24,000 nt of DNA from Pseudobdellovibrio sp. HCB154. GTDB taxonomy: Bacteria; Bdellovibrionota; Bdellovibrionia; Bdellovibrionales; Bdellovibrionaceae. Below the pieces are notes generated by a model. The model made no database searches, was not told the origin of the DNA, and saw nothing but the letters and a program-made list of their open reading frames with translations. Made by a program: the position numbers and the translations under genes. The DNA is taken from positions 478,881-502,880 of the forward strand of contig NZ_CP176530.1 in assembly GCF_046267985.1 (NCBI RefSeq), read 5' to 3'. Positions 3,075 through 24,000 of the stretch are shown here, one piece after another; position 1 is the first letter of the stretch; each line of letters starts with the position of its first letter.

Positions 3075-3833
3075 ATGAGAAAAGATTTGTTACTAGGAAT
3101 TGGAGCCACGTTAATCGCGATGGCTCTTTTTTATTTTGCAGACCATCCCACTGAAGCTTTAAATATCAAAAAAAATAAAATCGACTCAGATTCTGATTAC
3201 AACGTTCCTACGACTAAGATTGTGAATGAAAGTGTTCCGGCTGAAGTCGCTCGCCCGGCCGTTTCAGCCTCGGCCGCTTTACAACCAGGAGCAGCGCGCG
3301 ACACGATTTCAAAAAACTTCGTCGAGCATTTAAAAACGATCGGCACCTGCTTAAAAGTCTCTACAGCGATTGATAATCCAACGATTGAGCCAACTTATGA
3401 TAATTTACTTGTCAGCTTACGCCCGGGCTTAGGTGAAGTTGTGGTGCAAATGGATGATTGGACTCAGTTAGATCTGCAAAACCCAGATGGCTCACGCAAA
3501 AGAATTCGTACGGAAGTGAACTACGAAAATCCAAACGCACCGGTTAAATACGCCCAGCTTTACAATATCAACGATCAGGGCTTTCCTGAATTACAGCAAG
3601 TGGACCCCGAGAAAGCTCGTAATCCTTCGGATGATTATATTAATTATTTACGTGGAGGAGCCAACTTGGTTTTAGATGAACGCGGAAGCCGCGCCTATTT
3701 CCAAGAGGGTGAAGAGGTCGTTCTTGTTGAACGTGCCGGTATTATCGAATCTTTCTCGATTACGAAGAACGGCAAAACTGTCAGCTGTACGGGACTAGAT
3801 AAAATCGATTCCAACTGCCAGTGCGTCGAATAG
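3075..3833 (+). CDS. Hypothetical exported or N-terminally anchored protein
   Basis: 252 aa. N-terminal hydrophobic segment LLLGIGATLIAMALFYF, followed by a Ser/Ala/Pro-rich spacer and a Cys-containing C-terminal domain (C..C.C at the end). No family recognised. Confidence 0.6.
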   Translation: MRKDLLLGIGATLIAMALFYFADHPTEALNIKKNKIDSDSDYNVPTTKIVNESVPAEVARPAVSASAALQPGAARDTISKNFVEHLKTIGTCLKVSTAIDNPTIEPTYDNLLVSLRPGLGEVVVQMDDWTQLDLQNPDGSRKRIRTEVNYENPNAPVKYAQLYNINDQGFPELQQVDPEKARNPSDDYINYLRGGANLVLDERGSRAYFQEGEEVVLVERAGIIESFSITKNGKTVSCTGLDKIDSNCQCVE

Positions 3834-5712: not shown

Positions 5713-5748
5713 GGTCCAGATTATTTAGTTACACTCTGGGTGTTGTCT

Positions 5749-5775
5749 CATGACTTCGCTAAACTAGAAGTCATG
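5749..5775 (+). promoter_or_regulatory. Perfect 9-bp inverted repeat (CATGACTTC-N9-GAAGTCATG) whose 3' arm contains the ATG of the downstream gene
   Basis: Read directly: arms at 5749-5757 and 5767-5775, with ATG 5773-5775 in the 3' arm. Located 37 nt after the stop of the upstream gene. No T-run follows, so it is not a canonical terminator. Confidence 0.3.
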
Positions 5776-10027: not shown

Positions 10028-11253
10028 GCAGTCACCTTTTTGCCGTGATCAGGCAGATCTTTAAAAATCATAAAAATAATCGCTAAGGCAAATAACGTAA
10101 AGCCCCCAGCAAGTACAAACGGCGAACCTTTAAAAGTGCTTTGTAATAAAAAGCCACCAATCGCGGGGCCAATCACACGGCCTAAGGCTGATAAACTTTG
10201 TGTTGTACCTAAGGCAATACCTTGTTCTTCAGGCGGCACTAATAACGAAACGCTTCCCATAAACGATGGATTTGTTAATCCGTGGCCTAAAGAAAGTAAT
10301 GTCATCACAACACCCATCATTGGAATACTTGGCGCAAACGCGATGCCTAAAAGGCCTAGGCCTAATAAAAGTAATCCTGCACATAAAACTTTTCTTTCAC
10401 CCACTTTAGGAAGCAAACGGCGAACTAAAAAACCTTGTGTGAAAACAATAATCACACCGATGTAAGCAAAGCCAAAACTCACTTCTTTGATGTTCCAGTT
10501 AAATTTATCTTTCATGTAGAGAACCAAAGTTGATTCCATCAACGCCATTGAAAGTGTGGCTAGTGCAAAGCCTGTAATTAATGGGCCCACAGTTTTCATG
10601 TGAAAGTAGCGCACAAGGTGAGTAAACTTTTTTTGTTTTTCAGAACTGTTTTTCGCTCTGGTTTCAGCGCTGATCGATTCTTTTAAATTAAAGAACGCAA
10701 AGATAAATGTGAATAAGCAAAGTAGAGCAACGCCATACGCGGAGAAGCTGGCGACGAACCCCATGTCTGAGGACATCGTTTCAGCCCACACCGTTAAACC
10801 ACCGCCGATGGCCGGGCCAAATAAAAACCCTAAACCAAAAGCTACGCCAATTACGGCCATACCTTTTGAACGGTTTTCTGGAGTTGTCACATCTGACACA
10901 TAAGCTGAAGCGGTGGAAATTGAAGCGCCAAAAAAGCCAGTCATGATTCGCGCGATAAAAAGCATTTCTAATGAACGAGACCAGGCTAGAACTAAATAAG
11001 AAATCATTTCGCCTAAAAGGCAGTACATTAAAATCGGTCTGCGACCATAGCGGTCAGAAAGTTTTCCCCAAAACGGAGCAAAGATAAATTGCATGAGTGA
11101 ATAACACGACATTAAAAGACCAGCTACCCAAGGAGTGGCGCCGTAGTGTGTGCTCAGTAGGGGCAGAACCGGAATAATCATTCCGAATCCTAAAAGGTAA
11201 ATAAAAACTGTGAAAAAAATTACGATAAGTGGTTTTGCGTTTGGGTTTTTCAT
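10024..11253 (-). CDS. MFS transporter (12-TM, drug:H+ antiporter/tetracycline-efflux-like)
   Basis: 409 aa, very hydrophobic with about 12 TM segments. MFS motif A (GKLSDRYGRRPIL) lies between TM2 and TM3, and a motif C-like GPAIGG occurs twice. Confidence 0.9.
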   Translation of the reverse strand: MKNPNAKPLIVIFFTVFIYLLGFGMIIPVLPLLSTHYGATPWVAGLLMSCYSLMQFIFAPFWGKLSDRYGRRPILMYCLLGEMISYLVLAWSRSLEMLFIARIMTGFFGASISTASAYVSDVTTPENRSKGMAVIGVAFGLGFLFGPAIGGGLTVWAETMSSDMGFVASFSAYGVALLCLFTFIFAFFNLKESISAETRAKNSSEKQKKFTHLVRYFHMKTVGPLITGFALATLSMALMESTLVLYMKDKFNWNIKEVSFGFAYIGVIIVFTQGFLVRRLLPKVGERKVLCAGLLLLGLGLLGIAFAPSIPMMGVVMTLLSLGHGLTNPSFMGSVSLLVPPEEQGIALGTTQSLSALGRVIGPAIGGFLLQSTFKGSPFVLAGGFTLFALAIIFMIFKDLPDHGKKVTA

Positions 11254-11317
11254 TTTAGCCGATCTGGACCTTTGTCTTCTGCTCTTAGTATATAAACTCG
11301 GTTACACTGATGTGGCT

Positions 11318-12523
11318 ATGAAAAAAACATCCACTACACTGCGTTCTAAGGTGAATTTGGCCCTTCTAGGATTGGCTCTTTTTTCGACTGCTCAGGCTAA
11401 GGCATTTTTTGATCCTTACCAGGTCTATCGCTCGCAAAGATTCGATCTGGCGATTGATACACAATTCTACAAAACGACAGCTAACTTTGATTCAGGTGGT
11501 GAAAAAACAGATCTGCCATTTGAAAACAGCTATCAGCTTATAGATGTGACACCTCAATTGCGTTGGGGAATGTTCCGTGATTTTGGAGTACGCGTGGGCG
11601 GTAACGTCGGAACCTCGGAGTCGGTTGACCCAATTAATACACGTAACAATTCAACTTTTAACCGCATTGATGTGGGTGCTGATTATCAATTGCTCAACTT
11701 TGATTCTTTTCAGACGATCCTAGATTTTGAATATTCGCATCCTATGGAAAAAGTCAGTGAAACTGGCGATGACAGCTTAAACAGCAATGGTGCCAGCGAA
11801 ATTAAACCAACAGCCATTATGCGCATGGATTTAGGAAGTTTTTATCCTTACGCTTACGTGGGCGGAAATATTCGCTCTGAAGGTTTATCAACACTGTTGA
11901 CTTACGGTGTTGGCGGAGAATTTCGTTTTTCTGAATTGGGATTAGGTGCCGCGCTTGATGGTTTTAGTTCAGTTAAAGATGATCAATACACAAATTCGGC
12001 TTCACGTCGTGATGCGGTCACAACACGTGTGAATGGCGGAAGTAAAAGATTTTATTCAATCAATCCAAATGCTTTAGCTGCAGAACTTTTTGTGAATTTT
12101 GCGATGACAGATTTTATTAAGTTTAAAGCTTACGGCGGAGCTGATGTTACCGGTTCAAATTATTCACAAGGATTTTTTGTCGGAGCCGCTTTAACTTTTA
12201 CGCTTGATTACGGAAATAATGATCACGATGAAGAACCTGTGGTTCGTAAAGCGCGTCCAGCGGCGAAGAAAACAAAAGCGAAGCAACCTGTGGATAATGG
12301 ATTTCGTGAAGATACAAACGATGGCGTAGATCAAAATTATTTTAAATCAGTTGATCCAAGTAATGATGATTATGTGCAACCTATTGAAGAAGAGCAGCCA
12401 CCCCAAAATGGAACCAGCTCAAGTGTTAATCCGAACTCTGAATCTTCAACGCAGCAGGATTTAGATCAGCTCGGTTATACAATCAAATTAAAGAAGCTTA
12501 AAAAGAAAAAGAAGAATCAGTAG
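11318..12523 (+). CDS. Exported beta-barrel-like (outer-membrane) protein with long disordered C-terminal tail
   Basis: The supplied ORF starts at 11210 and overlaps the divergent MFS gene. ATG 11318 gives the signal peptide MKKTSTTLRSKVNLALLGLALFSTAQA|KA. About 300 aa show alternating hydrophobic/polar strands and Gly/aromatic-rich turns, ending FFVGAALTFTLDY. A ~100-aa acidic/Ser/Pro/Gln tail follows, ending KLKKLKKKKKNQ. Confidence 0.6.
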   Translation: MKKTSTTLRSKVNLALLGLALFSTAQAKAFFDPYQVYRSQRFDLAIDTQFYKTTANFDSGGEKTDLPFENSYQLIDVTPQLRWGMFRDFGVRVGGNVGTSESVDPINTRNNSTFNRIDVGADYQLLNFDSFQTILDFEYSHPMEKVSETGDDSLNSNGASEIKPTAIMRMDLGSFYPYAYVGGNIRSEGLSTLLTYGVGGEFRFSELGLGAALDGFSSVKDDQYTNSASRRDAVTTRVNGGSKRFYSINPNALAAELFVNFAMTDFIKFKAYGGADVTGSNYSQGFFVGAALTFTLDYGNNDHDEEPVVRKARPAAKKTKAKQPVDNGFREDTNDGVDQNYFKSVDPSNDDYVQPIEEEQPPQNGTSSSVNPNSESSTQQDLDQLGYTIKLKKLKKKKKNQ

Positions 12524-12644: not shown

Positions 12645-12743
12645 ATGATTACACATTTTAATATTATCGCCTTAGGACTTACTGTCGCAGCCAATGTTGC
12701 TATTTCAGATATGACCGATTCTCCTAAGTCGCAGCAATTCTAG
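12645..12743 (+). CDS. Candidate 32-aa small protein (MITHFNIIALGLTVAANVAISDMTDSPKSQQF)
   Basis: Own reading: strong SD AAAGGAGA ending ~6 nt before the ATG. Hydrophobic N-terminal half and polar tail. Too short for the supplied ORF track. Confidence 0.3.
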   Translation: MITHFNIIALGLTVAANVAISDMTDSPKSQQF

Positions 12744-12978
12744 CAAGAAAGTATGTTTCCCTAGAGGAAAAATGCCTTTAAAGCGGAAACCTGAAAAGTT
12801 AGAAAGCTTCTAACAAGAGAATCAAAAAAATAAAAAGAATGAAATGAAAACGATAATCATTTTTATCGTCTAAGTTTGTTGTGAATTTTTTCGCAGCCAA
12901 TTTCTCATTCTGCAAATCAAAACAAATTAATAATTTTTATTTAACCGCGTTCGGCAACGGGCGCAAAAAGGACTATTT

Positions 12979-13230
12979 ATGAAAAACGCTAAAAACTATT
13001 TAGCACATTATGAAAATTGGGAAAACGTAAACGCGGAGGAGCTTTGGCGCCTTTGGAAAAGTGTTCTCAAGTGTATTAACCTGATCGCTTATTGCCTTCA
13101 CGCTTTAGTGAAATTAGCGATCGGGTTTTTATTAAACGCCAACTATTTGGTAAAACATCACGAATTAGGAAAGCTACCGGAAGAAATCAACGGTAGCTAT
13201 GCTTGCAGCAGGAACTGGGATCTTAGCTAA
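12979..13230 (+). CDS. Hypothetical 83-aa protein
   Basis: The only ORF of at least 60 aa that is confined to the 0.8-kb spacer. AAAGGA SD 6 nt upstream of the ATG. Amphipathic/hydrophobic central helix (CINLIAYCLHALVKLAIGFLL). The stop codon lies inside the loop of a strong terminator hairpin. Confidence 0.4.
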   Translation: MKNAKNYLAHYENWENVNAEELWRLWKSVLKCINLIAYCLHALVKLAIGFLLNANYLVKHHELGKLPEEINGSYACSRNWDLS

Positions 13231-13250
13231 GACCAGTTCCTGTTTTTTAT
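13209..13250 (+). terminator. Rho-independent terminator
   Basis: CAGGAACTGG (13209-13218) pairs with CCAGTTCCTG (13233-13242). The loop region is itself partly self-complementary (TCTT-AGCT-AAGA). TTTTTTATT follows. Confidence 0.8.
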
Positions 13251-13321
13251 TGCTCTCTCTGTCATGTTGTAAATCGTCGTTGGGGAGGGGCGATTTGGTT
13301 TTGGAATTTTATTTTATAAGA

Positions 13322-13807
13322 TTATTCGAGATCCATGTGCTGCATGCGCATTTTCGGCATGTAGGCTTCGGCTTGCTCAAGTAAAGATAAGTGAGCTTGC
13401 GCCATGGCTTTTAGGTTGGCTTCAAATTGCATTCTTGATTTTTTAAGATCAGAAATTTCTTGATAGATTTTACGTAAAGAATCTTTCGCGTCGCGAGTGA
13501 TTGTTTCGGCCTTGTGTTGGGCGTCAGCAATGATTAATTTCACTTCGTGCTCAGTTTCAGTTTTCATTTGATCAGTCATTTTCGTAGCTTGGGTAATAGC
13601 GCTACGTAAAACATTATCGCGGTCACGGTATTCGTGAAGCTGTAATTCTTTTTCTTTTAATTCTTCAGTTAATGTTTGAATTTGTTGCGCCAGGTTTTCT
13701 GTTTGCGCAGCAATAACTGTTAGAAAGTTAACTACTTGTTCAGGATCAAAGCCCATCATCTTACGATCGAAGGTCTTATTTGCTATTTCAGTAGGGTAAA
13801 ATTTCAT
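13322..13807 (-). CDS. divIVA: DivIVA-domain cell-division/polarity protein
   Basis: 161 aa. N-terminus MKFYPTEIANKTFDRKMMGFDPEQVVNFL is the canonical DivIVA lipid-binding head. The remainder is heptad-like coiled coil. GGAGGA SD. Confidence 0.9.
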   Translation of the reverse strand: MKFYPTEIANKTFDRKMMGFDPEQVVNFLTVIAAQTENLAQQIQTLTEELKEKELQLHEYRDRDNVLRSAITQATKMTDQMKTETEHEVKLIIADAQHKAETITRDAKDSLRKIYQEISDLKKSRMQFEANLKAMAQAHLSLLEQAEAYMPKMRMQHMDLE

Positions 13808-13850
13808 TTAATTCCTCCATGAATCAAATTAACGAAACCCGTGGTTCACT

Positions 13851-13878
13851 ATTTTAGTATAGGTAATACTTGCCCCAA
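13851..13878 (-). promoter_or_regulatory. Candidate sigma-70-type promoter for divIVA (TTGGGG-16 nt-TAAAAT on minus strand)
   Basis: Read on the minus strand in the 156-bp proC-divIVA spacer, ~45 nt upstream of the divIVA ATG and preceded by a T8 run (UP-like). Hexamer match only. Confidence 0.25.
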
Positions 13879-13963
13879 AAAAAAGTCGAGTCCAAGGATG
13901 TGCCTATATCCTGTACTTTAGGTTGAGCGACAAAAGTCGTAATGCTTTGTGAGAAAGCCAGAC

Positions 13964-14794
13964 CTACGTCTGGCGGGCGATTTCTTGTGAACGTAAAGCG
14001 GCTTTTTCGAAGCTGATACGTAGGGCGCGTTCGATTTCAAGCTCACGCATTGAATTTAATCCAGCTGCGGTAACGCCTTTTTTAGAAGTGACTCGTTGTT
14101 GTAATTCTTCGATATCAACACCCGCTGATTGCGCAGCTAAAAGTGAAGCGCCAACGAAAGTTTCAATCGTCATCATTTTAGCTTGTTCAGGTGTAAAACC
14201 GTGTTCGATGATCCAATCTTGCCAGTACATCATCATTTCAAAAACAAAGCCTGTACCGCTTGAGCATGAAATCATTAAAGCATCGAATTGATCTTCAGTT
14301 TCTAATTCTAAAATAACACCTAAGCCAGAAAATAAGTCTTTCGTGATTTCAGTGACAACTTCATCTTTTTTATTCGCTAAAACACCTAAAACACCGCGGC
14401 CAATTAATGACGGCGTGTTTGGCATTAAGCGAACCAAGCGTGGTTGTGGAATCATTTTTTGTAATGAACGCATAGTGATTCCCGCAGCTAACGAGATCAC
14501 GATTTGGTTTTCGTTAAACGCCGAAGCCAGGTTGGCCATGGCTTGTGGAAGATCTTGCGGTTTCATTGCTAAAATAACAATGTCACACTCTTCGACGATC
14601 TGTTCATTATGTTCACGCGTTTGAATTTGATATAATTCTTTTAACTTAAGAGGCTTACCCGGAGTGCGGTTTGAAACCAAGATTTGATCTGGTCTTAATA
14701 ACTTTGACTCTACCATTCCTTTGATAAGAGCCTGAGCCATGTGTCCTGCGCCGATGAAACCAACTTTGTACGTCTTAAGTAAAGGATGAGTCAT
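13964..14794 (-). CDS. proC: Pyrroline-5-carboxylate reductase
   Basis: 276 aa. N-terminal Rossmann motif VGFIGAGHMAQALIKG, MPNTPSLIG and C-terminal TSKKGVTAAGL, typical of ProC. Confidence 0.93.
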   Translation of the reverse strand: MTHPLLKTYKVGFIGAGHMAQALIKGMVESKLLRPDQILVSNRTPGKPLKLKELYQIQTREHNEQIVEECDIVILAMKPQDLPQAMANLASAFNENQIVISLAAGITMRSLQKMIPQPRLVRLMPNTPSLIGRGVLGVLANKKDEVVTEITKDLFSGLGVILELETEDQFDALMISCSSGTGFVFEMMMYWQDWIIEHGFTPEQAKMMTIETFVGASLLAAQSAGVDIEELQQRVTSKKGVTAAGLNSMRELEIERALRISFEKAALRSQEIARQT

Positions 14795-14803
14795 ATAAAA
14801 AGA

Positions 14804-16036
14804 CTACTTTACTTTTTGCCTTTCGCCAAACAAAACCGTGCCGATTCGAATCCATGTCGCACCTTCTTTCAAGGCGACTTCGTAATCGTGGCTGGTTCCC
14901 ATCGAGAGCTCTTTGACTTGTAAGCGATCGGCCAAAGTTTTTAATTTTTTAAAATGAACTTGATTGTCTAAAGCCTGATTTTGCAGGGGAGGCATGGTCA
15001 TAAGCCCCACAATTTTTATATGAGCCAATTGAGTCAATTTATCCCAAGCGGCGAGAACGCTGGATTCGTCGAAACCCGCCTTGGTAGCTTCGTTCGCAAG
15101 ATTTACTTGAATAAAAACTTTTTGCACATGCCCGATTTCAGACGCTTTTTTTGAAACTAATTCGGCCAGTTCCAAAGAATCAATGGCGTGCAAATAAGCA
15201 AAGTTGTTTTTTAAATACTTTACTTTGTTTTTTTGAATCGGGCCGATCAGATGCCATTCTAAATTTAAATCTTTTAAGGCCTCGATTTTTTCTAAAGCCT
15301 CTTGAATATAGTTTTCACCAAAAGCCTTTTGGCCTTGTGAAACCAGTTCACGGATTTTTTCCAACGGTTGTAGTTTACTCACCGCTAGTAAATGTTGGTC
15401 AGCATTCAGTTTAGCTTTAATTTGTGAAAGGGCTGATTTTTCAAATGACCAATTCTTAGAGGTAAAGATTTTTTCTAATGCCGAAAGTGGAAGTCCAACG
15501 ACATTGTTGTAATCACCAACAAACTTTTCCACAAATTTTCCACCAAGACCTTGAATGGCGTAAGAGCCGGCTTTATCCATCGGTTCACCGGTTTTGATGT
15601 AATCCCAGATGTCTTCATCACGCAGGTTTTTGAAAAAAACTTGTGATGTCTCGATATGAGACGTGACTTCAGGTCCAGATTGACCAGCCCCTTGGTCCAG
15701 CAGGATGATCGCGGTTTTTACTTCGTGCATTTTGCCTGAAAGTTTCTTCAAAGTATCAAATGCATCCTGTTCGTTTTCAGGTTTGCCGATCGCTGAATTT
15801 TCTAAACAAACCATGGTGTCCGAAGCCAAAATAATATTGCTCGGATTTTTATCAGGACATAGGTCTAGGCAGGCCAGGGCTTTTCGTTTCGCAATGTCGA
15901 TTATCTGCTCGTCTAAGCTTAGGTTTTCATTCGGAATTTCCGATATGAAGACTGGGAATGAGACAAAATAATAACCGGCTTTTTTCAGAATTTCTGCGCG
16001 CCGCGGAGATTGCGAAGCTAGGACAATTTTTTTCAT
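14804..16036 (-). CDS. maf-yggS: Fusion protein: Maf-like nucleoside-triphosphate pyrophosphatase (N-terminal ~200 aa) + YggS/YlmE-family PLP-binding protein (C-terminal ~210 aa)
   Basis: Single uninterrupted 410-aa frame. Maf half: ASQSPRRAEIL, LASDTMV, DKAGSYAIQG, GDYNNVVGLP. YggS half: LLAVSKLQP (PLP Lys), FGENYIQE, WHLIGPIQKNK, LSMGTSHDYEVALKEGATWIRIGTVLFG. The stop lies 9 nt before the proC start. Confidence 0.9.
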   Translation of the reverse strand: MKKIVLASQSPRRAEILKKAGYYFVSFPVFISEIPNENLSLDEQIIDIAKRKALACLDLCPDKNPSNIILASDTMVCLENSAIGKPENEQDAFDTLKKLSGKMHEVKTAIILLDQGAGQSGPEVTSHIETSQVFFKNLRDEDIWDYIKTGEPMDKAGSYAIQGLGGKFVEKFVGDYNNVVGLPLSALEKIFTSKNWSFEKSALSQIKAKLNADQHLLAVSKLQPLEKIRELVSQGQKAFGENYIQEALEKIEALKDLNLEWHLIGPIQKNKVKYLKNNFAYLHAIDSLELAELVSKKASEIGHVQKVFIQVNLANEATKAGFDESSVLAAWDKLTQLAHIKIVGLMTMPPLQNQALDNQVHFKKLKTLADRLQVKELSMGTSHDYEVALKEGATWIRIGTVLFGERQKVK

Positions 16037-16067: not shown

Positions 16068-16976
16068 ATGGGTAGTGCTGAACTCATGTTATTTACTGGT
16101 CTCATCCTAGCGGGTGTGGCGGTTTATCTTTTCATGACTTCCATTTTGGCGGGGAAGCCCGGCGAAGCGCAATTGCAATGGGCCAGCGGTACTGAACCGA
16201 TTAAATCTAAAAATGGAATCATCAATCTTTGCCGTCCGATGGTGCATCAGTTTACTCTGCAGCACGCAGCAAAATTTAAATCTGAGGCTTATCGTAAAAA
16301 AATCCGTCACTTGATCAAAACTGGCGGCATGACATCTGAGATGAACGAAGATGAATTTATCGGTTACCAAATTTTCTTAGGTATCGCTTTTCCGATTTTT
16401 TTAATCATCATGAACTTTTCGTTAGACTTAGGATTTTCTCCGATGATCTTGGCGATGTTAGGCGTTGTGGGTTGGTTCATGCCACAGATGCACTGTAAGG
16501 CGCAGAAGAACGTAAGAACATTAAGCGTTCAGCAAGACATGCCATTTTTTATCGACCTACTTGCGCTTTCAGTTGAAGCGGGTCTTGATTTCTTCGGCGC
16601 GATTCAAAAAATCGTAGATAAAGTGGCTGACGAAAATTCAGTTTTAGCTGAAGAATTTAAAACAGTTTTAAAAGATATCAAAATTGGTTCATCAAAAACA
16701 GATGCGTTAAAAGAAATGGCCGCTCGCTTAGACATGCCAGAGATCACATCTTTCGTAGCCGTGTTAATTGATGCCGAAGCAACAGGCGCTTCAATTTCGC
16801 AAGTGTTAAAAGACCAATCGGTGCAAATGCGTTTAGAGCGCTTTGTTCGTGCGGAAAAAGCCGGAGCGCGTGCTTCGCAATTAATTTTACTTCCATTAAT
16901 GGGATTTATTTTACCAGCCGTATTCATCATGGTTTTCGGACCAGTGATTTTAGGCTTTGTGTACGGAAAGAATTAA
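16068..16976 (+). CDS. Type II secretion system F-domain protein (TadB/TadC-type Flp-pilus platform protein), orphan
   Basis: 302 aa, AAGAGGA SD. N-terminal TM, central double TM and C-terminal TM. T2SS-F domain motifs MPFFIDLLALSVEAGLDFFGAIQKI and ISQVLKDQSVQMRLERFVRAEKAGARASQLILLPLMGFILPAVF. I cannot tell TadB from TadC by eye. Confidence 0.85.
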   Translation: MGSAELMLFTGLILAGVAVYLFMTSILAGKPGEAQLQWASGTEPIKSKNGIINLCRPMVHQFTLQHAAKFKSEAYRKKIRHLIKTGGMTSEMNEDEFIGYQIFLGIAFPIFLIIMNFSLDLGFSPMILAMLGVVGWFMPQMHCKAQKNVRTLSVQQDMPFFIDLLALSVEAGLDFFGAIQKIVDKVADENSVLAEEFKTVLKDIKIGSSKTDALKEMAARLDMPEITSFVAVLIDAEATGASISQVLKDQSVQMRLERFVRAEKAGARASQLILLPLMGFILPAVFIMVFGPVILGFVYGKN

Positions 16977-16979
16977 AAG

Positions 16980-17336
16980 ATGGCAAAACTTTACAAGATT
17001 CAACATGGGGATAAAGCCGAGCTTCTGATTGAAAATCTGGAGTTGGCGGAATCATTTTTTGCCCGTGGTAAAGGGTTGTTAGGCCGAAAATCTTTAAGCC
17101 CGAATGCGGCGTTATGGATTAAGCCTTGTAACAACATTCACACCTTTTTTATGAATTTTGCGATCGATTGCATTTTTGTGAATAAAAAAATGGAAATTGA
17201 AAAAATAGTATCCGTTGTAAAACCCTATAAGATCATTGGGCCTTTTTGGAAAGCATCATCAGTCGTAGAAACAGCAGCTGGCAATGCAGAAAAGTGGAAC
17301 CTTCAGGTAGGAGATCAGTTATATGTGGTCAGTTAG
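16980..17336 (+). CDS. DUF192 (COG1430) family protein
   Basis: 118 aa. FARGKGLLGRKSLSPNAALWIKPCNNIHTFFMNFAIDCIFVNK fits the DUF192 pattern (G-L-M/L-G-R...hhF.....hH..FM.F.hD.hFh). Starts 3 nt after the upstream stop. No signal peptide seen. Confidence 0.8.
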   Translation: MAKLYKIQHGDKAELLIENLELAESFFARGKGLLGRKSLSPNAALWIKPCNNIHTFFMNFAIDCIFVNKKMEIEKIVSVVKPYKIIGPFWKASSVVETAAGNAEKWNLQVGDQLYVVS

Positions 17337-18990
17337 AGTATTATCCGGCCCACAAACCGGACAGATCTTTGATTTAAAGATGGGAAAAAACCTGTTAGGT
17401 CGGGGAATGAGCTGTGATTTTAAAATCACTTCAGGCGGTATTTCGAAAGAGCACTGCGAGATTCACGTATATAAAGATAAAGTGATCGTGGTTGATTTAA
17501 AATCAAGTAACGGAACATTCGTTAATGGCGTAAAAATTCAGAATTCAATTATTAAGTTAGGCGATAAAGTCAGTGTGTTCGACGTAATTATGGATGTAAT
17601 TCCTTCACCGGATATTCGTCCAAAACCATCAGCACCGGCTCCACGCCCGTTAGTGCCGCGCCCACGTCCGCCGGCACAACCAAGACAAATGCCTCCGCAA
17701 ATGTACCAGCAACCCCCAGCATTTCCGACGCAAGGTGGAGCGGCGATGCAAATGCAATATCAGCAGCAAATGCCACCGATGCAAGGTGTGCCGCCACAAA
17801 ATAATTTTGGTGCAGCCGTTGAGCCGCAAAAAACATTGGGTGAGCGCATTGATGACTACATGGAAAATGTAGTGATGCCGGTATTTTATAAAATGTCGGT
17901 GGTGTTTCCATTTAAACAAGTGTTAATGGGCATGATGATTCTCTTTGTGGTGTTTGTCACAATGGCGTCGATTTTTCCTCTGACAACTATTTTAAAAGAA
18001 TCAAATTTTAATGAAGCTTCAAAACGTGCTAAATCTGTGGCGCGTGCCATGGCTCGTATCAATGAGCAGGCACTTCTGTCTGGACAGCTAAATAATCTAA
18101 ATGTCAGTGAAGCTTTAAAAGAAGATGGTATTAAAGAAGCAATCATTATCCAACAAGCTGACGGGGCGATCGTTGCGCCGACAGAAAAAGTGGGTCGTGA
18201 TATGTCTAAGGGCTTTGTGATTCAGGCGCGTAAAGAACCACGTGCCATGGCTGCGCAAGTTGATGATAACACAATTGGCGCAAGTCATCCGATTGCAGCG
18301 TACGATCCATTATCTGGTGAAACAGCCGTTAAATACGTAGCTATCGTATTCTATGATGTCAGTTCATTAAATGTAGATGATGGCCGCGTGGTGAGTTTAT
18401 TCATGCAGACATTAGTTATTTCAGCTCTATTTGGTATTGTTTTATATCTATTATTTGCACGTCTTATCGAATATCCACTGCGTGCTTTGAATAAACAGAT
18501 TGATACGGCCTTACGTGAAAAAACAGATCGCACTGAAGTGGCGTTTGATTATCCAGAGTTACAAAAATCTGTAGCGAATGTGAATTTACTTTTAAACCGT
18601 TTATGGAATGGTTTAAGCGATTCTGAAAACATGAAACCTACGCAAAATCGCGATGTGGAATTTTCACAAATGGTGAATATGATCACGCAACCTGCGGCGG
18701 TGATTAATGTGAGTGGCTCGGTGGTTTCATGCAATCACCAATTTGCAACATTAGTGCAAACATCGCCAGAAGCGTTAGTTTCGCAAAACTACAACACGAT
18801 TGTAGACCCGGCGATGGTGCAAAACATTGAAAGTTTAATTACGCGTGCAAAAGAATCTGTTTATGAAACGCATAGAGATAAAATTCCGTTCTCACAATTT
18901 GAGTGCGAAATTAATTTACAAGCGTTTTTAGACAGTGCCGGTGCACCAGAGTATTTCTTTGTAAGTTTATCTAAGGTGAATCAGGAGTAA
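17323..18990 (+). CDS. FHA-domain transmembrane sensor-like protein (FHA / Pro-Gln-Met linker / TM / periplasmic domain / TM / HAMP-like / PAS-like), no output domain
   Basis: 555 aa.
- FHA at aa ~20-90 with the complete triad (LLGRG; ISKEHCEI; DLKSSNGTFVNG).
- Pro/Gln/Met-rich linker at aa ~95-165.
- TM ~199-221, a ~135-aa extracytoplasmic alpha/beta segment, then TM ~356-381.
- HAMP-like region: EYPLRALNKQIDTAL...ELQKSVANVNLLLNRL.
- PAS-like C-terminus: ITQPAAVINVSGSVVSCNHQFATLVQTSPEALVSQNY.
ATG 17323 overlaps the upstream gene by 14 nt, with a GGAGA SD ~8 nt upstream. Confidence 0.85.
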   Translation: MWSVRVLSGPQTGQIFDLKMGKNLLGRGMSCDFKITSGGISKEHCEIHVYKDKVIVVDLKSSNGTFVNGVKIQNSIIKLGDKVSVFDVIMDVIPSPDIRPKPSAPAPRPLVPRPRPPAQPRQMPPQMYQQPPAFPTQGGAAMQMQYQQQMPPMQGVPPQNNFGAAVEPQKTLGERIDDYMENVVMPVFYKMSVVFPFKQVLMGMMILFVVFVTMASIFPLTTILKESNFNEASKRAKSVARAMARINEQALLSGQLNNLNVSEALKEDGIKEAIIIQQADGAIVAPTEKVGRDMSKGFVIQARKEPRAMAAQVDDNTIGASHPIAAYDPLSGETAVKYVAIVFYDVSSLNVDDGRVVSLFMQTLVISALFGIVLYLLFARLIEYPLRALNKQIDTALREKTDRTEVAFDYPELQKSVANVNLLLNRLWNGLSDSENMKPTQNRDVEFSQMVNMITQPAAVINVSGSVVSCNHQFATLVQTSPEALVSQNYNTIVDPAMVQNIESLITRAKESVYETHRDKIPFSQFECEINLQAFLDSAGAPEYFFVSLSKVNQE

Positions 18991-18999
18991 GGCTAAGTA

Positions 19000-20259
19000 A
19001 TGTCAACGGCTGAAAAGCTACAACCCGCAGTTCAGATTAAATTGAAAGTGCTGAAAGGACCGCACGAAGGGCAGTCTTTTCATCTTTCAAAGAGCTCATT
19101 TACTGTGGGTCGTGGCCCAGAGAATGAGGTCGTTTTAATTAATGACCCGCAGATCAGCCGTCAGCATGCGCGTTTACAAGTGGTTGGCCAAGATATCGAG
19201 ATCATCAACTTATCTAAGAAAAATAAAGTGATGGTGGGATCAGAAGAAATCCAAAAATGGAAACTGATCAACGATTCAACTTTCATGTTGGGTGATACCG
19301 AAATTCAAATCGCCTTTGAAATTGAAAAATTAACACCGATGACGCCAGGTCCGCAATTAGTGCGCACGGATTTACCGGCTGTGCCCGTGGGGTTAGATCT
19401 GAATCCTCCGCCAGCTCCAGCGGCAACACCGCAAGCGAAAAAAACGCCAGCGATGACTCCGCTGCAACCGCAAGCGCCACGCAAGCGACCGATGCCGCCT
19501 CCGGCAAATCGCCAGCAAGTTCCTGCAAATCGTCAGGGGCAAGTGCAAGCACGCGGTCCGATGCAACCAGGCAGACCAGGCCCGCAAGGGCAGATGATGC
19601 CGCGACCAAATCAGCAAATGGGTCCGCAGTTTATTCCAGAAATGGGAATGGGAGCACCACGCCCAGCTACGAATTCTCAAGCAAATAGTGGTGGTGGATT
19701 ACTGGCTAATCCGAAAGCGCGTTTTTATTTAATTGTTGGAGCGATAGTCTTAGGTCTAGTTTATTGGTTAAATATGGAAGAGCCGAAGAAGCCTCAGTCG
19801 AATGAAATTAAATCGACTCTGAAATACGAAGATGAATATCTTCTTAAGCAAAACTCGGTGGCTGAAAAAGAACTGGACCAAAAGCGTAAGGCAAAACTTG
19901 AACAAAAGATGTCGCCGACAAATTTACGTGTTGAAGAGAACTTTCAAAAAGGCATGCGCGATTATCAGCTAGGTAATTACACGCGTGCCCTAGACTTTTT
20001 TCAGGTGGTGTTAAACTTAGATGCCAGCCATGTGATGGCTCGCCGTCATTTATACTTAGCTAAAATCCGCTTCGATGAGATCGTAAAAGCGAAATTAGCA
20101 CTTGGAGAAAGTTATTATCAGAAGCATAATTTTAAAATGTGCAAGGCGATGTACCAGCAAGTTTTGATTATGCTTCAGGGAAAAAACAACGATCAAAGTT
20201 ATCAAACAGCCCAAAGCATGTCAGAAAAATGTGGTCTGGCCGCTGAGGGAATTCGTTAG
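19000..20259 (+). CDS. FHA-domain bitopic membrane protein with extracytoplasmic TPR-like domain
   Basis: 419 aa.
- FHA at aa ~13-107 (FTVGRG; ISRQHARL; the N-G position reads N-K).
- Pro/Gln/Arg-rich linker at aa ~110-238 with several T-P dipeptides.
- One TM (FYLIVGAIVLGLVYWL).
- TPR-like repeats (FQKGMRDYQLGNYTRALDFFQVVLNLDASH; LGESYYQKHNFKMCKAMYQQVL). Confidence 0.85.
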   Translation: MSTAEKLQPAVQIKLKVLKGPHEGQSFHLSKSSFTVGRGPENEVVLINDPQISRQHARLQVVGQDIEIINLSKKNKVMVGSEEIQKWKLINDSTFMLGDTEIQIAFEIEKLTPMTPGPQLVRTDLPAVPVGLDLNPPPAPAATPQAKKTPAMTPLQPQAPRKRPMPPPANRQQVPANRQGQVQARGPMQPGRPGPQGQMMPRPNQQMGPQFIPEMGMGAPRPATNSQANSGGGLLANPKARFYLIVGAIVLGLVYWLNMEEPKKPQSNEIKSTLKYEDEYLLKQNSVAEKELDQKRKAKLEQKMSPTNLRVEENFQKGMRDYQLGNYTRALDFFQVVLNLDASHVMARRHLYLAKIRFDEIVKAKLALGESYYQKHNFKMCKAMYQQVLIMLQGKNNDQSYQTAQSMSEKCGLAAEGIR

Positions 20260-22341
20260 ATGTCGAGATTAAAAGTATTACTAAGGGGAGCACAGATCAG
20301 TGACTTAAACCTTAGCCCTGACCGTGAATATGTCGGTGGGCGTAAGGAAAGTTGCGATATCCGTTTGCAACCTGAAAAAGGCATCTCGCGCGAACATTTC
20401 AAATTAAAATTTGAAGAAGGCCGTTGGGTTTTAACCTCGTTATCACGTTTCGGCGAAATTTTTTCTGTGGGCCAAAGAGTTGAATCAACGCCTCTTGAAC
20501 ATGGCCAGGTTTTTCAAATTCCACCGTATGAATTTATTTTAAGTGATGTTCCTGATTCGGCCAGCGATTCGGTGAACGCCAGCGAAATGCCTGAGGCCGG
20601 TGAGAATGAACGCACGGTTATCGGTGTTGCTCAACAAGTGCCGTACATCAAAATGATGTCGTCTGACGGGCAAGTGCGCGAAATGCTTCGTCTGGAAGTG
20701 GGCGATGTGTGGGCCGCGGGCCGCGATCCTTCGTGCCAAATTATTATTCCTGATCAACGTGTTTCGCGTCGTCAGTTTGAAGTTAGAAAAATTAACGGCA
20801 TTTACACGATTATCGACTTAACAAGTGTGAACGGAACTTTCTTAAACGGTTCACCAATTTCAAGCACTGATCCACAGCCGTTAAAATCAGGTGATGCGAT
20901 CACGGTTCTTGATAATACAATGTATTTCGAACTTCATGACCCGAACTTTCAATACCGTATGGAACGTATCGAAGTTCCTCCAATGCAAATGGGTGGAGCG
21001 GGCGTTGATGACGTGGTTGAAGAAGTTCCGCTTGAAGAAGTGCCTTACGAAGAAGAATATGATCCGAACCAGGATATGAATTATCCGCAGGAAATTGATC
21101 AAGGTTATTATCAAGATCAATTAAATCCGGATGGTTCACCGTTTACCGGTATGCCGCCAGGCCAAATGCAGGGTGACTACTACACTATGCAAGGGGCCGA
21201 GGGTGTCGCACCTGAACAACAAGGTCCACCACCAAGCCCGATCAAACAGGCTTGGACTCGTTTTAAAAATAACAAGCCGGTATTTTATTCGGTTGTCGCT
21301 TTATTTTTAGTGGGTATGTATTTCTTAAGCGAAATGCTGAATGAACCTACTCCACAAAAAGCAACGCAACAGCAAGCATTTAATCCGGACGATCCCTTAT
21401 CACGTTTAAAACCTGAAGAGCGTGAAAATATCAGTCTCTGGTATAACAATGCCGAAAAAGCTTTACGTCAGCAGGCCTTCACGATTGCTAAAGAAAATTT
21501 AGATAATATTCATAAACTTTTACCTTTAGGTTATAAAGATTCAAAACTTTACGAAGCTGAAGCCTTAAACGGTGAGCAAACTCTTTTAACACAACAAGAA
21601 ACTGAACGTCGTGATAAAGAGCAAGCTGAATTACAGGCTTTAATCAAATCCACTTTGGAAAAGTGTGAAAAATCAATCGTGCCAGAAACAACACCTGAAG
21701 GTTTACAAGAGTGTTTGGCGCCAGTGACAATCAACGACCCGACAAATGCTGACGCCGAAAGAATGATTAGCAAAGTTCGCCAAACGATTGCCGACCGTCA
21801 AGCTAAAGAAGATGCTGAACGTGTGGCTAAACAGCAGCGCGAAGATATGAAAGCTATTTTTGAACGTGCTGAAGAAGTTCATAAAACCGGTTTTCCGAAA
21901 AAAGCGATTAAAGCTTATAACGAAGTTTTAGCCAGCGATTTACCAGATCCAGATGGTTACAAAGATATTTCAAAACAACGTATTAAGTTTATCGAGAAAA
22001 AATTAGCAGAACGTAATCAAAACAACATCAGCAATGCCGAAACTTTCCTTAAAGACGGAAAACTTAAAGAAGGCATTATGGCCTTACGTGCAGCGCTGTT
22101 ATTTGATCCAGATAACCAAACGATCAAAGATAAAATTGAGCGTTATTCAAATGATTTAAGAAACCAGGTTAAGGTGATGTACCAAGAATCCATCATCGAT
22201 GAAAACTTTGGTTACGTAGACGGGTCTGATAATAGACCGGGCGCTAAAGACAAATGGAAAAAAATTATTGAAATCGACCTTGAAGATGGTGATTACTACC
22301 GTAAGGCCTTCATTAAACTTAGACGCTACGGAGTTTTCTAG
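20260..22341 (+). CDS. Tandem-FHA bitopic membrane protein with extracytoplasmic coiled-coil/TPR-like region
   Basis: 693 aa.
- FHA-1 at aa ~3-95, divergent (YVGGRKESCDIRL; ISREHFKL; no N-G).
- FHA-2 at aa ~128-226 (WAAGRDPSCQIII; VSRRQFEV; DLTSVNGTFLNG).
- Acidic/Pro/Gln/Tyr linker at aa ~239-329.
- One TM (VFYSVVALFLVGMYFL).
- ~330-aa charged helical region with TPR-like repeats (KAIKAYNEVLASD; GKLKEGIMALRAALLFDPDN).
The ATG directly abuts the upstream TAG. Confidence 0.85.
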   Translation: MSRLKVLLRGAQISDLNLSPDREYVGGRKESCDIRLQPEKGISREHFKLKFEEGRWVLTSLSRFGEIFSVGQRVESTPLEHGQVFQIPPYEFILSDVPDSASDSVNASEMPEAGENERTVIGVAQQVPYIKMMSSDGQVREMLRLEVGDVWAAGRDPSCQIIIPDQRVSRRQFEVRKINGIYTIIDLTSVNGTFLNGSPISSTDPQPLKSGDAITVLDNTMYFELHDPNFQYRMERIEVPPMQMGGAGVDDVVEEVPLEEVPYEEEYDPNQDMNYPQEIDQGYYQDQLNPDGSPFTGMPPGQMQGDYYTMQGAEGVAPEQQGPPPSPIKQAWTRFKNNKPVFYSVVALFLVGMYFLSEMLNEPTPQKATQQQAFNPDDPLSRLKPEERENISLWYNNAEKALRQQAFTIAKENLDNIHKLLPLGYKDSKLYEAEALNGEQTLLTQQETERRDKEQAELQALIKSTLEKCEKSIVPETTPEGLQECLAPVTINDPTNADAERMISKVRQTIADRQAKEDAERVAKQQREDMKAIFERAEEVHKTGFPKKAIKAYNEVLASDLPDPDGYKDISKQRIKFIEKKLAERNQNNISNAETFLKDGKLKEGIMALRAALLFDPDNQTIKDKIERYSNDLRNQVKVMYQESIIDENFGYVDGSDNRPGAKDKWKKIIEIDLEDGDYYRKAFIKLRRYGVF

Positions 22342-22343
22342 TC

Positions 22344-22922
22344 ATGAAATCAAAAGTCAGTTCACACAATGGCCAGCAGAAATTTCCACAAACACATGTG
22401 CATAGTCTGTTAAATGATAATTTATTAGTGTGCATTCGTTTATGGAGCGGCCCTGAAGTAGAACAAAAAGCAGTTGATGAAATTCTACGTTACCTTTCAG
22501 CGGCTGATGCGGATCTGGAAGTTACAACGCCGTTTGATTATATCGAAAGTTTATCGTCGCTTGCAAATAAAGTGCGCGTCGCTTTATTACTGGCCAATGA
22601 AGCTTTATACATTGATAACAAAGAAAAATATTCGCAAGGTTTTGAAATTGCAATTTGTTATAAACACAATAAAGAAATCAGCTTAGGTTCGGTGGGGCGC
22701 TTTGCTTTTACAGCAGAAAAGAAAGACAAAAAGTTTTTAATGTTTGAATCAGGTGGCTTTTTAGATGATTTAGTGCTGCTTCCGACAGATCTTTTAGGCA
22801 TTGAACGTGAAGTTGATATTAAGTGCACGTCTGTTTCAACGCGCGATTTATCTTCAATTCAGATTAGTTCTAAGTTTGACCAAAATACATATTGGTCAAC
22901 AACTGTTAGTCAGTTTGACTAG
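22344..22922 (+). CDS. Hypothetical cytoplasmic protein, last gene of the FHA operon (possible degenerate PP2C-like fold)
   Basis: 192 aa. The ATG lies 2 nt after the upstream stop. No signal peptide or TM. LLVCIRLWSGPEVEQKAVDEILRYL and EIAICYKHNKEISLGSVGRFAFT are spaced like the DGMGG-helix and GDSR strands of PP2C phosphatases, but the metal-binding Asp residues are absent. This is a by-eye impression only. Confidence 0.55.
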   Translation: MKSKVSSHNGQQKFPQTHVHSLLNDNLLVCIRLWSGPEVEQKAVDEILRYLSAADADLEVTTPFDYIESLSSLANKVRVALLLANEALYIDNKEKYSQGFEIAICYKHNKEISLGSVGRFAFTAEKKDKKFLMFESGGFLDDLVLLPTDLLGIEREVDIKCTSVSTRDLSSIQISSKFDQNTYWSTTVSQFD

Positions 22923-22941: not shown

Positions 22942-24000
22942 TTATTGCACGAAATTAGGGTCAACGAAGATCAGCGGGTGATACCAGGTTTTATTTTGCT
23001 CATGCAGGCCCCAGATATTTTCCATCGCTAAATTCCAATTAGCGATTTTGATTTCTTCAAAATATTTTTTACGATTTAATTCGTAAGCCAGTTTAGTTTT
23101 TTCAGTATTTAAATCAAACTGCGGAGCATGTTTATATTTTAAATAATCAACGAACAGGCTATCGTGACAAGATTTAAGCTGCGAAATCACCACAGGTGGT
23201 TTGCTAATAAGATTTAGACAACCACTGTAAGCCATATCAAGCTTTATTAAATCCATTTTTTCAATCTGTTTGGCTTTTAATTGCTGGTTTAGCCAGTACA
23301 AATAAAGCGGGTGAGTTTCAGCAATTTTTACAGAAAAGAAATCGGCTGCGGGTAAAGTATTTTTTAAATAGTCTTTGGCCAAAGTCATCCCGTTATCGCC
23401 AGGTTGGGTAATACTTGTCACAAACAAACGGCGCGGGCTTGGAATATCTTGTTCGCTATTTGTTTTGTACAGGTTGACCACTTCAAATTTATCAGTGGCT
23501 AAGCTAAAAACTTCAGTTTCTTCTTTGCGATCAATAATCAGTAAAGTTGGTGTGATGACAGCAAAATTTAATTGCAGCGGTTTTTTAATCCAAGTGTTGG
23601 CGGCTTCAACCAAAAGATAACGGGGATTTGTTTTACTGTCTGCCGAAGCTTCGCTGTAAAACGGTGTTAAATTTAACAGCGGAAAACCTTCTAAAGCCGA
23701 CGGTTCGTCAGCGCCAAAAAAGCTTTTTAAGGTATGCCCGATATCCGCTAAAGAGATGGGGGTATCGTTCTTCCAAGAAATACCCTCATCGCCTGACATG
23801 CGAGGCGGCTTAATTAACAGAGAAACTAACGTGTTTTCAGAGTGAAGATTTAAAAAAGGTGTTTCGTTTAAGCGATTATAGTTGTTGCCACCACGAAGAC
23901 CCACCACATACACATAGGTTTTATCCCAGATGCCACGGTGTTTTAATTCGCTGATAAAATTAAAAAGTTTTTCGTCTAATTTTTCGATATTTGTTGTCGA
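22942..24000 (-). CDS. Sulfatase/alkaline-phosphatase-superfamily-like protein, C-terminal part (5' end beyond window)
   Basis: The supplied ORF starts at GTG 23913, but my translation shows the frame stays open to 24000 (STTNIEKLDEKLFNFISELKHRGIWDKTYVYVVGLRGG...). ELKHRGIWDKTYVYVVGLRGG ... TLVSLLIKPP ... ISLADIGHTLKSFFG parallels the L..G..DNT-hhhh-sDHG ... vP ... Dh.PTL layout of sulfatase-family enzymes, with D-H-G replaced by L-R-G. A ~200-aa unfamiliar C-terminal extension follows. Confidence 0.55.
   Translation of the reverse strand, partial: STTNIEKLDEKLFNFISELKHRGIWDKTYVYVVGLRGGNNYNRLNETPFLNLHSENTLVSLLIKPPRMSGDEGISWKNDTPISLADIGHTLKSFFGADEPSALEGFPLLNLTPFYSEASADSKTNPRYLLVEAANTWIKKPLQLNFAVITPTLLIIDRKEETEVFSLATDKFEVVNLYKTNSEQDIPSPRRLFVTSITQPGDNGMTLAKDYLKNTLPAADFFSVKIAETHPLYLYWLNQQLKAKQIEKMDLIKLDMAYSGCLNLISKPPVVISQLKSCHDSLFVDYLKYKHAPQFDLNTEKTKLAYELNRKKYFEEIKIANWNLAMENIWGLHEQNKTWYHPLIFVDPNFVQ

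Follow-up and report, generated by a model that had tools for sequence, protein, structure and literature searches.

Tad Machines in Predatory Bacteria

Bdellovibrio bacteriovorus HD100 possesses a complete but dispersed Tad system, for which a separate "tadC locus" has been defined and in which tad locus 1 (Bd0110-0119) encodes TadB, TadZA, RcpA and Flp (Tesseur et al., 2026, bioRxiv 10.64898/2026.07.08.737194). The TadC protein, Bd0470, is encoded apart from that main tad cluster; it and KilH, the platform protein of the Myxococcus Kil system (corresponding to Caulobacter CC_2940), are reciprocal best hits (Seef et al., 2021, PMC8460266, Supplementary file 2). Bd0470 and the five genes that follow it have been given as an operon, for which phenotypes were reported (Duncan et al., 2019, PMC6561027), and Bd0470-Bd0475 are also termed an operon in more recent work (Abulude et al., 2025, PMC12034629). 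Here we analyze six consecutive genes, g1 to g6, of Pseudobdellovibrio sp. HCB154, for which open reading frame (ORF) calling and direct reading of the sequence place all members on the + strand, at positions 16068-22922 of a 24-kb stretch of DNA (hereafter, the window). As far as sequence and gene order can tell, they are the tadC operon of a Bdellovibrionales predator, gene-for-gene orthologous to Bd0470-Bd0475. We hold, with a probability of about 70%, that this identity, together with a role of the gene products as a checkpoint or scaffold working around the TadB/TadC platform, explains the locus.

In HD100, TadC is part of an essential polar Tad machine. The tadC gene could not be deleted, and likewise rcpA, tadZA and tadB; depletion of those core components by CRISPR interference (CRISPRi) blocks invasion, and TadC-mCherry is found at the invasive pole, co-localized with RomR and RcpA (Tesseur et al., 2026). 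All six genes are needed for predation, with fitness values W of 0.002-0.03 (full Tn-seq, i.e., transposon sequencing; 0.015/0.00098 for Bd0471; Duncan et al., 2019, Data Set S4). The tadC mutant, Bd0470::tn, shows no attachment, killing or rounding of prey, whereas Bd0474::tn, the only "class II" mutant, keeps prey attachment and loses killing and rounding, which places Bd0474 after attachment; both mutants were complemented (Duncan et al., 2019). Bd0474, a protein of 674 amino acids (aa), carries FHA domains at 2-100 and 134-241 and, in the periplasm, a TPR domain; it binds Bd0075, a protein with a GYF domain, a transmembrane (TM) segment and a TPR domain, in a bacterial two-hybrid assay based on adenylate cyclase (BACTH), and an AlphaFold-Multimer prediction for Bd0473-Bd0475 reached an interface predicted TM-score (ipTM) of 0.604 (Abulude et al., 2025). 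The presence of FHA, TPR and PAS proteins next to tad genes, notably tadC, has been remarked on (Tesseur et al., 2026). The accessible part of the RomR proximity-labeling paper, spanning main text and supplements, makes no mention of Bd0470-0475 or Bd0075.

A related situation exists in Myxococcus, where FHA genes lie directly beside KilH in the Kil cluster (Seef et al., 2021, Supplementary file 1). In cluster 2 of Myxococcus xanthus (MXAN_4648-4652), KilH is directly preceded by the FHA+TPR gene MXAN_4648 and by MXAN_4649, which is FHA and PrgH-like. The excess of Kil FHA proteins was noted by these authors, who proposed a phosphorylation cascade like that of the type VI secretion system (T6SS) (Seef et al., 2021). 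The likeness to the tadC operon, drawn from annotation and gene order, lies in an over-representation of FHA proteins near a predatory Tad machine whose genes are divided among loci. However, the KilH cluster also encodes TadB (KilG), CpaB and the pilins, the Kil ATPase, KilF, has an FHA domain of its own, and the annotation there shows neither a DUF192 nor a PP2C-like gene. Should the FHA genes beside KilH be homologous to those described below, they would represent an ancestral feature of predatory Tad systems.

A Conserved Operon Headed by tadC

The first gene, g1 (16068..16976, +), encodes a TadC-type inner-membrane platform subunit, the ortholog of Bd0470/KilH. TadC proteins are distinguished by one T2SSF copy above the Pfam gathering score (PilC and GspF have two) in a polytopic membrane protein. 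In g1, Pfam detects PF00482 in a single stretch, aa 161-290 (4.9e-17, 62.5 bits vs. a cut-off of 25.2), and the hydropathy profile marks three hydrophobic stretches (aa 1-30, about 96-139 and 268-301); its domain score, single copy, polytopy and orthology to the studied TadC thus agree, the orthology to Bd0470 following from collinear synteny with B. bacteriovorus-type loci, including L063 (see below). The second gene, g2 (16980..17336, +), the ortholog of Bd0471, encodes a DUF192 (COG1430) protein of 118 aa (PF02643, 1.5e-18, 67.2 bits vs. 27). Hydropathy reveals no TM or signal-like segment in g2, which has no hydrophobic N-terminus, in contrast with Bd0471, annotated with a signal sequence (Duncan et al., 2019, Data Set S4). 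A look at the DUF192 literature gave nothing related to pili.

The order in HD100 is TadC, a DUF192-type "conserved protein", two FHA proteins, the 674-aa double-FHA and TPR protein, and lastly a small hypothetical protein whose fold is phosphatase-like. The window presents the same six genes in this order, with the same domain architectures and the same flanks with DivIVA upstream; since Bd0464 is DivIVA (Duncan et al., 2019, Data Set S4), the upstream flank matches that of HD100. TadC is about 70% identical between the two operons and the accessory proteins about 30-40%, g6 being shorter in its C-terminal region here (192 aa vs. 228 aa in HD100). For g5 (20260..22341, +), the correspondence was followed through one B. 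bacteriovorus-type locus, L063, which is collinear with the window and whose g5 ortholog is 680 aa long by the chosen upstream start and 674 aa after a 6-residue offset. It displays 12/12 of the published Bd0474 interface residues at their published positions (residues from Abulude et al., 2025), and because of these residues, the 674-aa length and the collinearity, g5 is taken as the ortholog of Bd0474.

A scan of one genome per GTDB species retrieved 80 loci (L001-L080), all of them in Bdellovibrionales-type organisms, with TadC identities of 57-99%. TadC homologs are abundant, their sources being Pseudobdellovibrio and Bdellovibrio, and the close ones are annotated as "tight adherence protein C"; the nearest loci belong to two Pseudobdellovibrio metagenome-assembled genomes (MAGs), with TadC 98-99% identical. 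Synteny was counted in the 62 of the 80 loci whose sequence runs on for 7 kb or more beyond the tadC start. By tblastn, the six genes are collinear and on one strand in 60 of them; in the other two, g6 is too divergent for tblastn and a family hidden Markov model (HMM) locates it at the expected place, the order being thus kept in 62/62. The DUF192 gene is present in 80/80 loci. Because both the order and the tight junctions recur in all 62 loci, the arrangement is more than chance, and, as median identity drops from 77% for TadC to 36-43% for g4, g5 and g6 while the six genes are always kept, the accessory genes are fast-evolving but never lost. The flanks are also kept, with a divergent maf/yggS fusion, proC and divIVA upstream, and a 323-aa ORF on the other strand downstream. 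One locus, L071, seemed to offer a "Rosetta stone", a g5-g6 fusion in an ORF of 897 codons (about 12737-15430); we rejected it as an artefact, since an ambiguous base X lies exactly at the place of the stop codon and most likely masks it.

From g1 to g6, the junctions measure +3, -14, +9, 0 (TAG then ATG) and +2 nucleotides (nt), the 0 and the -14 having been read directly in the sequence, and those of the related loci are mostly -1, -4 or -14 nt. Judged on these distances, the operon-like coupling of g1-g6 is real. The overlap of exactly -14 between g2 and g3 recurs in many loci family-wide, which suggests that translational coupling of the DUF192 gene and the first FHA gene in particular is conserved. 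In the window this 14-nt overlap spans 17323-17336, with the ATG of g3 inside the end of g2 and AGGTAGGAG upstream. Scans for internal promoters and terminators were uninformative, both counts being at the background of shuffled sequences (20 promoter-like sites vs. 16.0±4.2 and 10 terminator-like sites vs. 8.0±2.9).

Within the 24-kb window, Pfam, NCBIfam and a motif scan detected neither a Hanks kinase nor a T2SS-E ATPase, and no Flp pilin, secretin or T2SSF gene other than g1. Unlike in a canonical one-cluster Tad locus (flp-tadV-rcpCAB-tadZABCDEFG), the ATPase, second platform subunit, pilins and secretin are therefore not found beside tadC in the window. The original prediction, made from the letters of this stretch, had spoken of an "orphan" platform and had considered, as one option, a self-contained and undescribed transmembrane signaling complex on a single platform subunit, independent of a pilus machine. 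That the four partners are missing from the window would agree with such a complex, but the HD100 ortholog is the TadC of a dispersed and complete Tad system, it co-localizes with the secretin at the invasive pole and is not deletable, CRISPRi depletion of the Tad core components blocks invasion, and the operon has already been described and phenotyped; the chances of a stand-alone complex are, in our opinion, very slight indeed. Nor is the platform an orphan in HD100, where its partners are found in tad locus 1, and the combination that had not been recognized is Bd0470-Bd0475, published in three works (Duncan et al., 2019; Abulude et al., 2025; Tesseur et al., 2026). The gene set is thus already part of a characterized Tad locus, an outcome that the prediction had itself named as counting against it.

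Other statements of the same prediction stand. The six same-strand genes and their junctions are as it gave them, Pfam finds the T2SS-F, the DUF192 and the four FHA domains, and the neighborhood is conserved beyond this genome. Of its list of absent functions, kinase, ATPase, pilin and secretin are indeed absent from the window, whereas the phosphatase has to be struck from that list with regard to fold (see g6 below). Its second option, the gating or localizing of a Tad machine encoded elsewhere, fits the evidence, the HD100 tadC locus being separate from tad locus 1. The operon is real and conserved and it is not an undescribed system; the locus is a further member of a known and partly characterized operon, in a Pseudobdellovibrio-like genome.

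FHA Proteins Across the Membrane

The three central genes, g3 (17323..18990, +; ortholog of Bd0472), g4 (19000..20259, +; ortholog of Bd0473, by Pfam, hydropathy and synteny) and g5, encode FHA proteins by Pfam score (PF00498, gathering cut-off 20.7 bits). The domain covers aa about 1-95 of g3 (3.6e-15, 56.6 bits), aa about 16-104 of g4 (8.3e-11, 42.6 bits), and two stretches of g5, aa about 16-96 and 153-215 (2.7e-30, 105.1 bits). According to hydropathy, g4 and g5 have one TM segment each (239-260 and 340-360, respectively). The former continues into a periplasmic TPR part, in which TPR_2 reaches the Pfam threshold only if this part is scanned alone (28.8 bits vs. 27), and the latter, with its tandem FHA domains, into a periplasmic helical, TPR-like domain. 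The linkers contain 14-26% Pro and 12-17% Gln, that of g5 being acidic and Pro-Gln-rich. The idea that these Pro-rich linkers are canonical GYF ligands for a Bd0075-like partner was discarded, since PPG occurs in only 2-4 of 68-74 orthologs.

The architecture of g3 is more elaborate. Two TM segments (about 197-222 and 358-382, by hydropathy) separate its FHA domain from a PAS domain at aa 447-549 (Pfam, 8.5e-6), and because there are two of them, the C-terminal PAS is cytoplasmic. The blueprint that had been proposed for g3-g5 is therefore right as to FHA, Pro/Gln-rich linker and TM segment(s), and wrong in setting the PAS of g3 outside the cytoplasm. The layout would be FHA, Pro/Gln-rich disordered linker, TM1, a periplasmic alpha/beta PAS-like domain (aa about 225-350), TM2, HAMP-like helices and PAS. 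The AlphaFold2 (AF2) model, whose pLDDT (predicted score in the local distance difference test) is 64 overall and about 80-88 over residues 200-350 and 445-551, has TM1 running into a long helix, then the PAS-like periplasmic domain, TM2, the HAMP-like helices and the PAS. Its top Foldseek match in the PDB is WalK (9a5d_A, 4.9e-15), and in NCBIfam aa 199-517 of g3 align with WalK positions 9-330, at 24.4 bits against a cut-off of 725. Like this sensor histidine kinase, g3 has TM, extracytoplasmic PAS-like domain, TM, HAMP-like helices and cytoplasmic PAS; unlike it, g3 carries neither the dimerization and histidine phosphotransfer (DHp) domain nor the catalytic ATPase domain, and has an N-terminal FHA and a disordered linker fused to it. 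HisKA (DHp) and HATPase_c are absent from g3 and from all 120 of its homologs among the matches listed (536-582 aa). Given the WalK-like match and this absence, g3 is the input half of a sensor kinase with FHA in the place of the kinase output.

FHA domains contact phosphothreonine (pThr) through a Gly-Arg in the beta3-beta4 loop, a Ser-x-x-His in the beta4-beta5 loop and an Asn-Gly. In 69-75 orthologs, conservation of the Gly-Arg and of the Ser of the SxxH (with Lys/Arg) reaches at least 95% in each of the four FHA domains; in the second FHA of g5 a conserved Gln stands in place of the His, and the Asn-Gly is kept in the FHA of g3 and the second one of g5. Because the Gly-Arg and the Ser are retained in all four domains, true pThr reading is favored over a purely structural, FHA-like role.

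The latter role deserves attention, since the FHA-TM proteins could be phospho-independent ring or connector subunits, like SctD (PrgH/YscD) or GltG, that build or anchor the Tad basal body and take no part in signaling. The domain model Yop-YscD_cpl (PF16697) scores above threshold on g3-g5 (48-65.7 bits vs. 33.2; 8.7e-16 on g4), the Phyre2 notes on Bd0472 mention the type III secretion system (T3SS) (Duncan et al., 2019, Data Set S4), and the operon encodes no kinase. GltG, with two FHA domains, a transmembrane helix (TMH) and a periplasmic extension, docks on its motor via TMH and FHA without known phosphorylation (PMC11761067). It shares with g5/Bd0474 the two cytoplasmic FHA domains, the disordered linker, the single TMH and the long periplasmic domain, while GltJ (ZnR-GYF-TMH-periplasmic extension) resembles Bd0075 in its cytoplasmic GYF domain followed by a TM segment and a periplasmic part, TPR in Bd0075; the pair g5/Bd0474 and Bd0075 would thus mirror GltG/GltJ. 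The comparison stops, however, at the periplasmic domains, TPR-like here and TonB-CTD-like in GltG and GltJ, and at the partner machine, a Tad platform here and a TolQR-like motor in Agl-Glt. Furthermore, the curated full-length models stay far below their cut-offs. SctD (TIGR02500) gives 15.9-28 bits vs. 86, its match being limited to the N-terminal FHA-like domain model PF16697; GltG (NF033760) gives 24.5-27.8 bits vs. 650, over FHA and linker only; and TagH (TIGR03354) gives 72.1 bits for g5 and 31.1 bits for g4 vs. 120.25. Because they fail by such margins, the likenesses to GltG, SctD and TagH are resemblances and not memberships. The conserved Arg and Ser that contact pThr, the PP2C-fold partner (g6) and the predation-essential PknG-like kinase of HD100 point instead to pThr chemistry, and the Bd0474 mutant still attaches to prey, so that it is not simply machine-less like the tadC mutant. 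On balance we find a purely structural role unlikely.

A PP2C Fold Without Catalytic Aspartates

The last gene, g6 (22344..22922, +; 192 aa), is the ortholog of Bd0475, for which a Phyre2 note reads "serine phosphatase" (Duncan et al., 2019, Data Set S4). It had first been listed as unknown; its AF2 model (46 homologs), with a pLDDT of 91.9 and a predicted TM-score (pTM) of 0.88, now gives it confidently a PP2C fold. The Foldseek matches in the PDB include tPphA (4.5e-9), PstP (8e-8), the T6SS phosphatase PppA (1e-7) and Stp1, with E-values from 4.5e-9 to 5e-7, the top ones at a probability of 1.00 and TM (query) of 0.60-0.69, out of 109 matches at E <= 1e-3. The model thus has the predicted alpha-beta-beta-alpha sandwich of PP2C. 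The link could not be established at the sequence level. Pfam places g6 itself in no family. No Pfam PP2C, PP2C_2 or SpoIIE match rises above its gathering score in g6 and 46 relatives, the profile sequence search against the PDB gave nothing relevant, and hhalign was non-significant; besides the fold, two sub-threshold matches support it, both among eight distant relatives scanned, one to SpoIIE (5.2e-4, 20.4 bits vs. 25) and one to PP2C_2 at chance level (E 0.15, 12 bits vs. 24). An exhaustive profile search of 1.84 billion proteins assigned 228 representative clusters to the g6 family, and all 150 members listed have 108-253 aa, most of them about 190-250 aa. A search of the 80 loci found no canonical PP2C gene.

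The positions of the catalytic motifs were read from an hhalign alignment of g6 with PstP (its sequence checked against PDB 2cm1) and tPphA (sequence from the same output), which is non-significant (probability 0.2%) and has the register expected from the order of secondary structures. In this alignment, which covers the DGxGG, GDSR and SDG columns, the DN motif falling outside the aligned region, DGxGG would correspond to R-L-W-S-G, GDSR to G118-R119 and SDG to S176-K177 of g6. In 142 family members, these columns are occupied by T-P-W-G, G-[QGHSN]-P and S-[RSH]-S, and never by Asp. Because the PP2C fold is accompanied by columns that are never Asp throughout the family, g6/Bd0475 is probably a PP2C-fold pseudophosphatase, a conclusion of moderate confidence since the mapping depends on the alignment.

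The family-invariant residues of g6 are W34, T61, N75, N92, E101, G118, G152 and W184. One of them stands in an ordered loop, residues 56-64, A-D-L-E-V-T61-T-P-F64, for which the family pattern is D-x-E-V-T-[ST]-P-[FY]; T61 is found in 142/142 members, D57 in 132/142 and an aromatic residue at position 64 in 134/142. That T61 might be a phospho-acceptor or FHA ligand is speculation.

In pairing an FHA scaffold with a PP2C-fold protein, both encoded together with a nanomachine that spans the envelope and is triggered by contact, the operon recalls the threonine-phosphorylation pathway of the Pseudomonas aeruginosa T6SS (kinase PpkA, PP2C phosphatase PppA and scaffold Fha1); of these, PppA ranks among the best matches of g6 in structure. 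By contrast with that system, the tadC operon has no kinase, g6 lacks the catalytic aspartates, and there are four FHA domains, all of them on membrane-anchored proteins.

A Proposed Checkpoint Around the Tad Platform

The above observations can be brought together as follows. By orthology, g1 would pair with the TadB of a separate main tad locus, and the two would form the inner-membrane platform of the Tad (Flp) pilus machine at the invasive pole, an arrangement shown in HD100. Around this platform, g3, g4 and g5 would assemble through their TM and periplasmic parts, each with a sensor or TPR domain on the periplasmic side and, on the cytoplasmic side, its FHA held by a long, disordered tether rich in Pro and Gln. 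The four FHA domains would read pThr marks deposited by a Hanks-type kinase encoded elsewhere. In HD100, the candidate is the predation-essential, PknG-like Bd3148 (W = 0.003; Duncan et al., 2019, Data Set S4), earlier proposed as the kinase for the FHA-gated cyclase DgcB. With its WalK-like periplasmic and PAS input and no kinase core, g3 would deliver its output by protein-protein contact and not by phosphotransfer, and g6, to which one of the FHA proteins would bind, would work as an adaptor or regulator and not as an enzyme. Contact with prey would in this way be coupled to the steps that follow attachment, i.e., pilus action, prey rounding and entry. It is likely that g1-g6 license these steps as a pThr-read, membrane-spanning scaffold or checkpoint.

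It could be argued that the FHA, PP2C-like and DUF192 genes are merely co-transcribed with tadC and serve another polar process of the attack phase, such as DgcB/cyclic di-GMP (c-di-GMP) signaling, type IVa pili (T4aP), gliding, or the development of pole and division. The operon always lies beside divIVA-proC-maf/yggS, the best NCBIfam match of g3 and g4 is, at the domain level, FhaB/FipA, linked to cell division and peptidoglycan (PG), the Bd0474 and Bd0470 mutants fall in different phenotype classes, and DgcB, another FHA protein, controls invasion through pThr. Yet the translationally coupled junctions with tadC have been kept over the whole 57-99% range of TadC divergence, FHA genes also adjoin the TadC ortholog KilH in Myxococcus, which belongs to a different phylum, and all six genes share the same extreme defect in predation, all of which makes a mere passenger status quite improbable.

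Several points weigh against a pThr-read checkpoint at the Tad platform. Insertions of the transposon in upstream genes may be polar, only Bd0470 and Bd0474 having been complemented. The loss of catalytic residues in g6 depends on the 0.2% hhalign alignment, which agrees with the fold match only in register, the AF2 model of g3 is moderate overall and poor in its FHA part, and the published AF-Multimer scores (about 0.6) are borderline.

A more complete version of the checkpoint could also be imagined, in which the tadC operon would be the entire, kinase-less "reader" arm of a prey-contact checkpoint for the pilus machine. Its parts would be a WalK-like sensor with FHA output, two GltG-like FHA-TM-TPR connectors and a dedicated PP2C-fold pseudophosphatase, whose invariant and exposed T61 would, once phosphorylated, serve as the ligand for one of the FHA domains; through phosphorylation, a distant PknG-like kinase would, upon contact with prey, lock these parts onto TadB/TadC, switching the Tad machine from attachment to invasion. 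That all of this should hold jointly is doubtful, and we put it forward tentatively.

The passage from reversible attachment to invasion is an open question in Bdellovibrio, and this operon holds the one published mutant, Bd0474, that attaches without proceeding. To the HD100 work, the present comparison adds the invariance of the six-gene module in the sampled Bdellovibrionales, the retention of the pThr residues in the FHA domains and the PP2C fold of g6 devoid of catalytic Asp, besides the orthology of the locus and the kinase-less sensor. For annotation, six genes called "hypothetical/FHA" in hundreds of MAGs become recognizable as a Tad-accessory module, and the remaining interest lies in the mechanism of its FHA/pseudophosphatase part.

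Genomic Surroundings

The gene divergent from tadC is one ORF of 410 aa (window 14804-16036, - strand), a maf/yggS fusion that joins a Maf nucleotide pyrophosphatase (aa 3-191, 3.7e-53) to a YggS-type, pyridoxal phosphate (PLP)-binding Ala_racemase_N domain (aa 203-406, 3.8e-20). Of 73 related loci, 67 have it in the divergent orientation and no more than 1.5 kb upstream of tadC. In the window, its start lies only 31 bp from that of tadC, so the tadC promoter must sit within maf/yggS. A sigma-28 attack-phase promoter was considered for the operon and rejected, the motif that we take to describe it, TAAA-N14-17-CCGATA, having no match in the window. The window gave no Rfam or tRNA hits.

On the other side, the 323-aa ORF (window 22942-23913, - strand) converges on the end of the operon. 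It belongs to no Pfam or NCBIfam family and occupies the same position in 56 related loci, with 24-96% identity; it may or may not be related to the operon. Farther upstream, a 437-aa ORF (window 11210-12523, + strand), which has a hydrophobic segment at its N-terminus and matches no family, precedes divIVA in 45 related loci, at a median identity of 31%. Finally, between a gene for a 2-oxoglutarate (2OG)-Fe(II) oxygenase and valS there is a run of ORFs with no Pfam match even at E <= 1, encoding 252, 518 and 382 aa (3075-3833, 4156-5712 and 5740-6888, + strand) and 151 aa (1434-1889).

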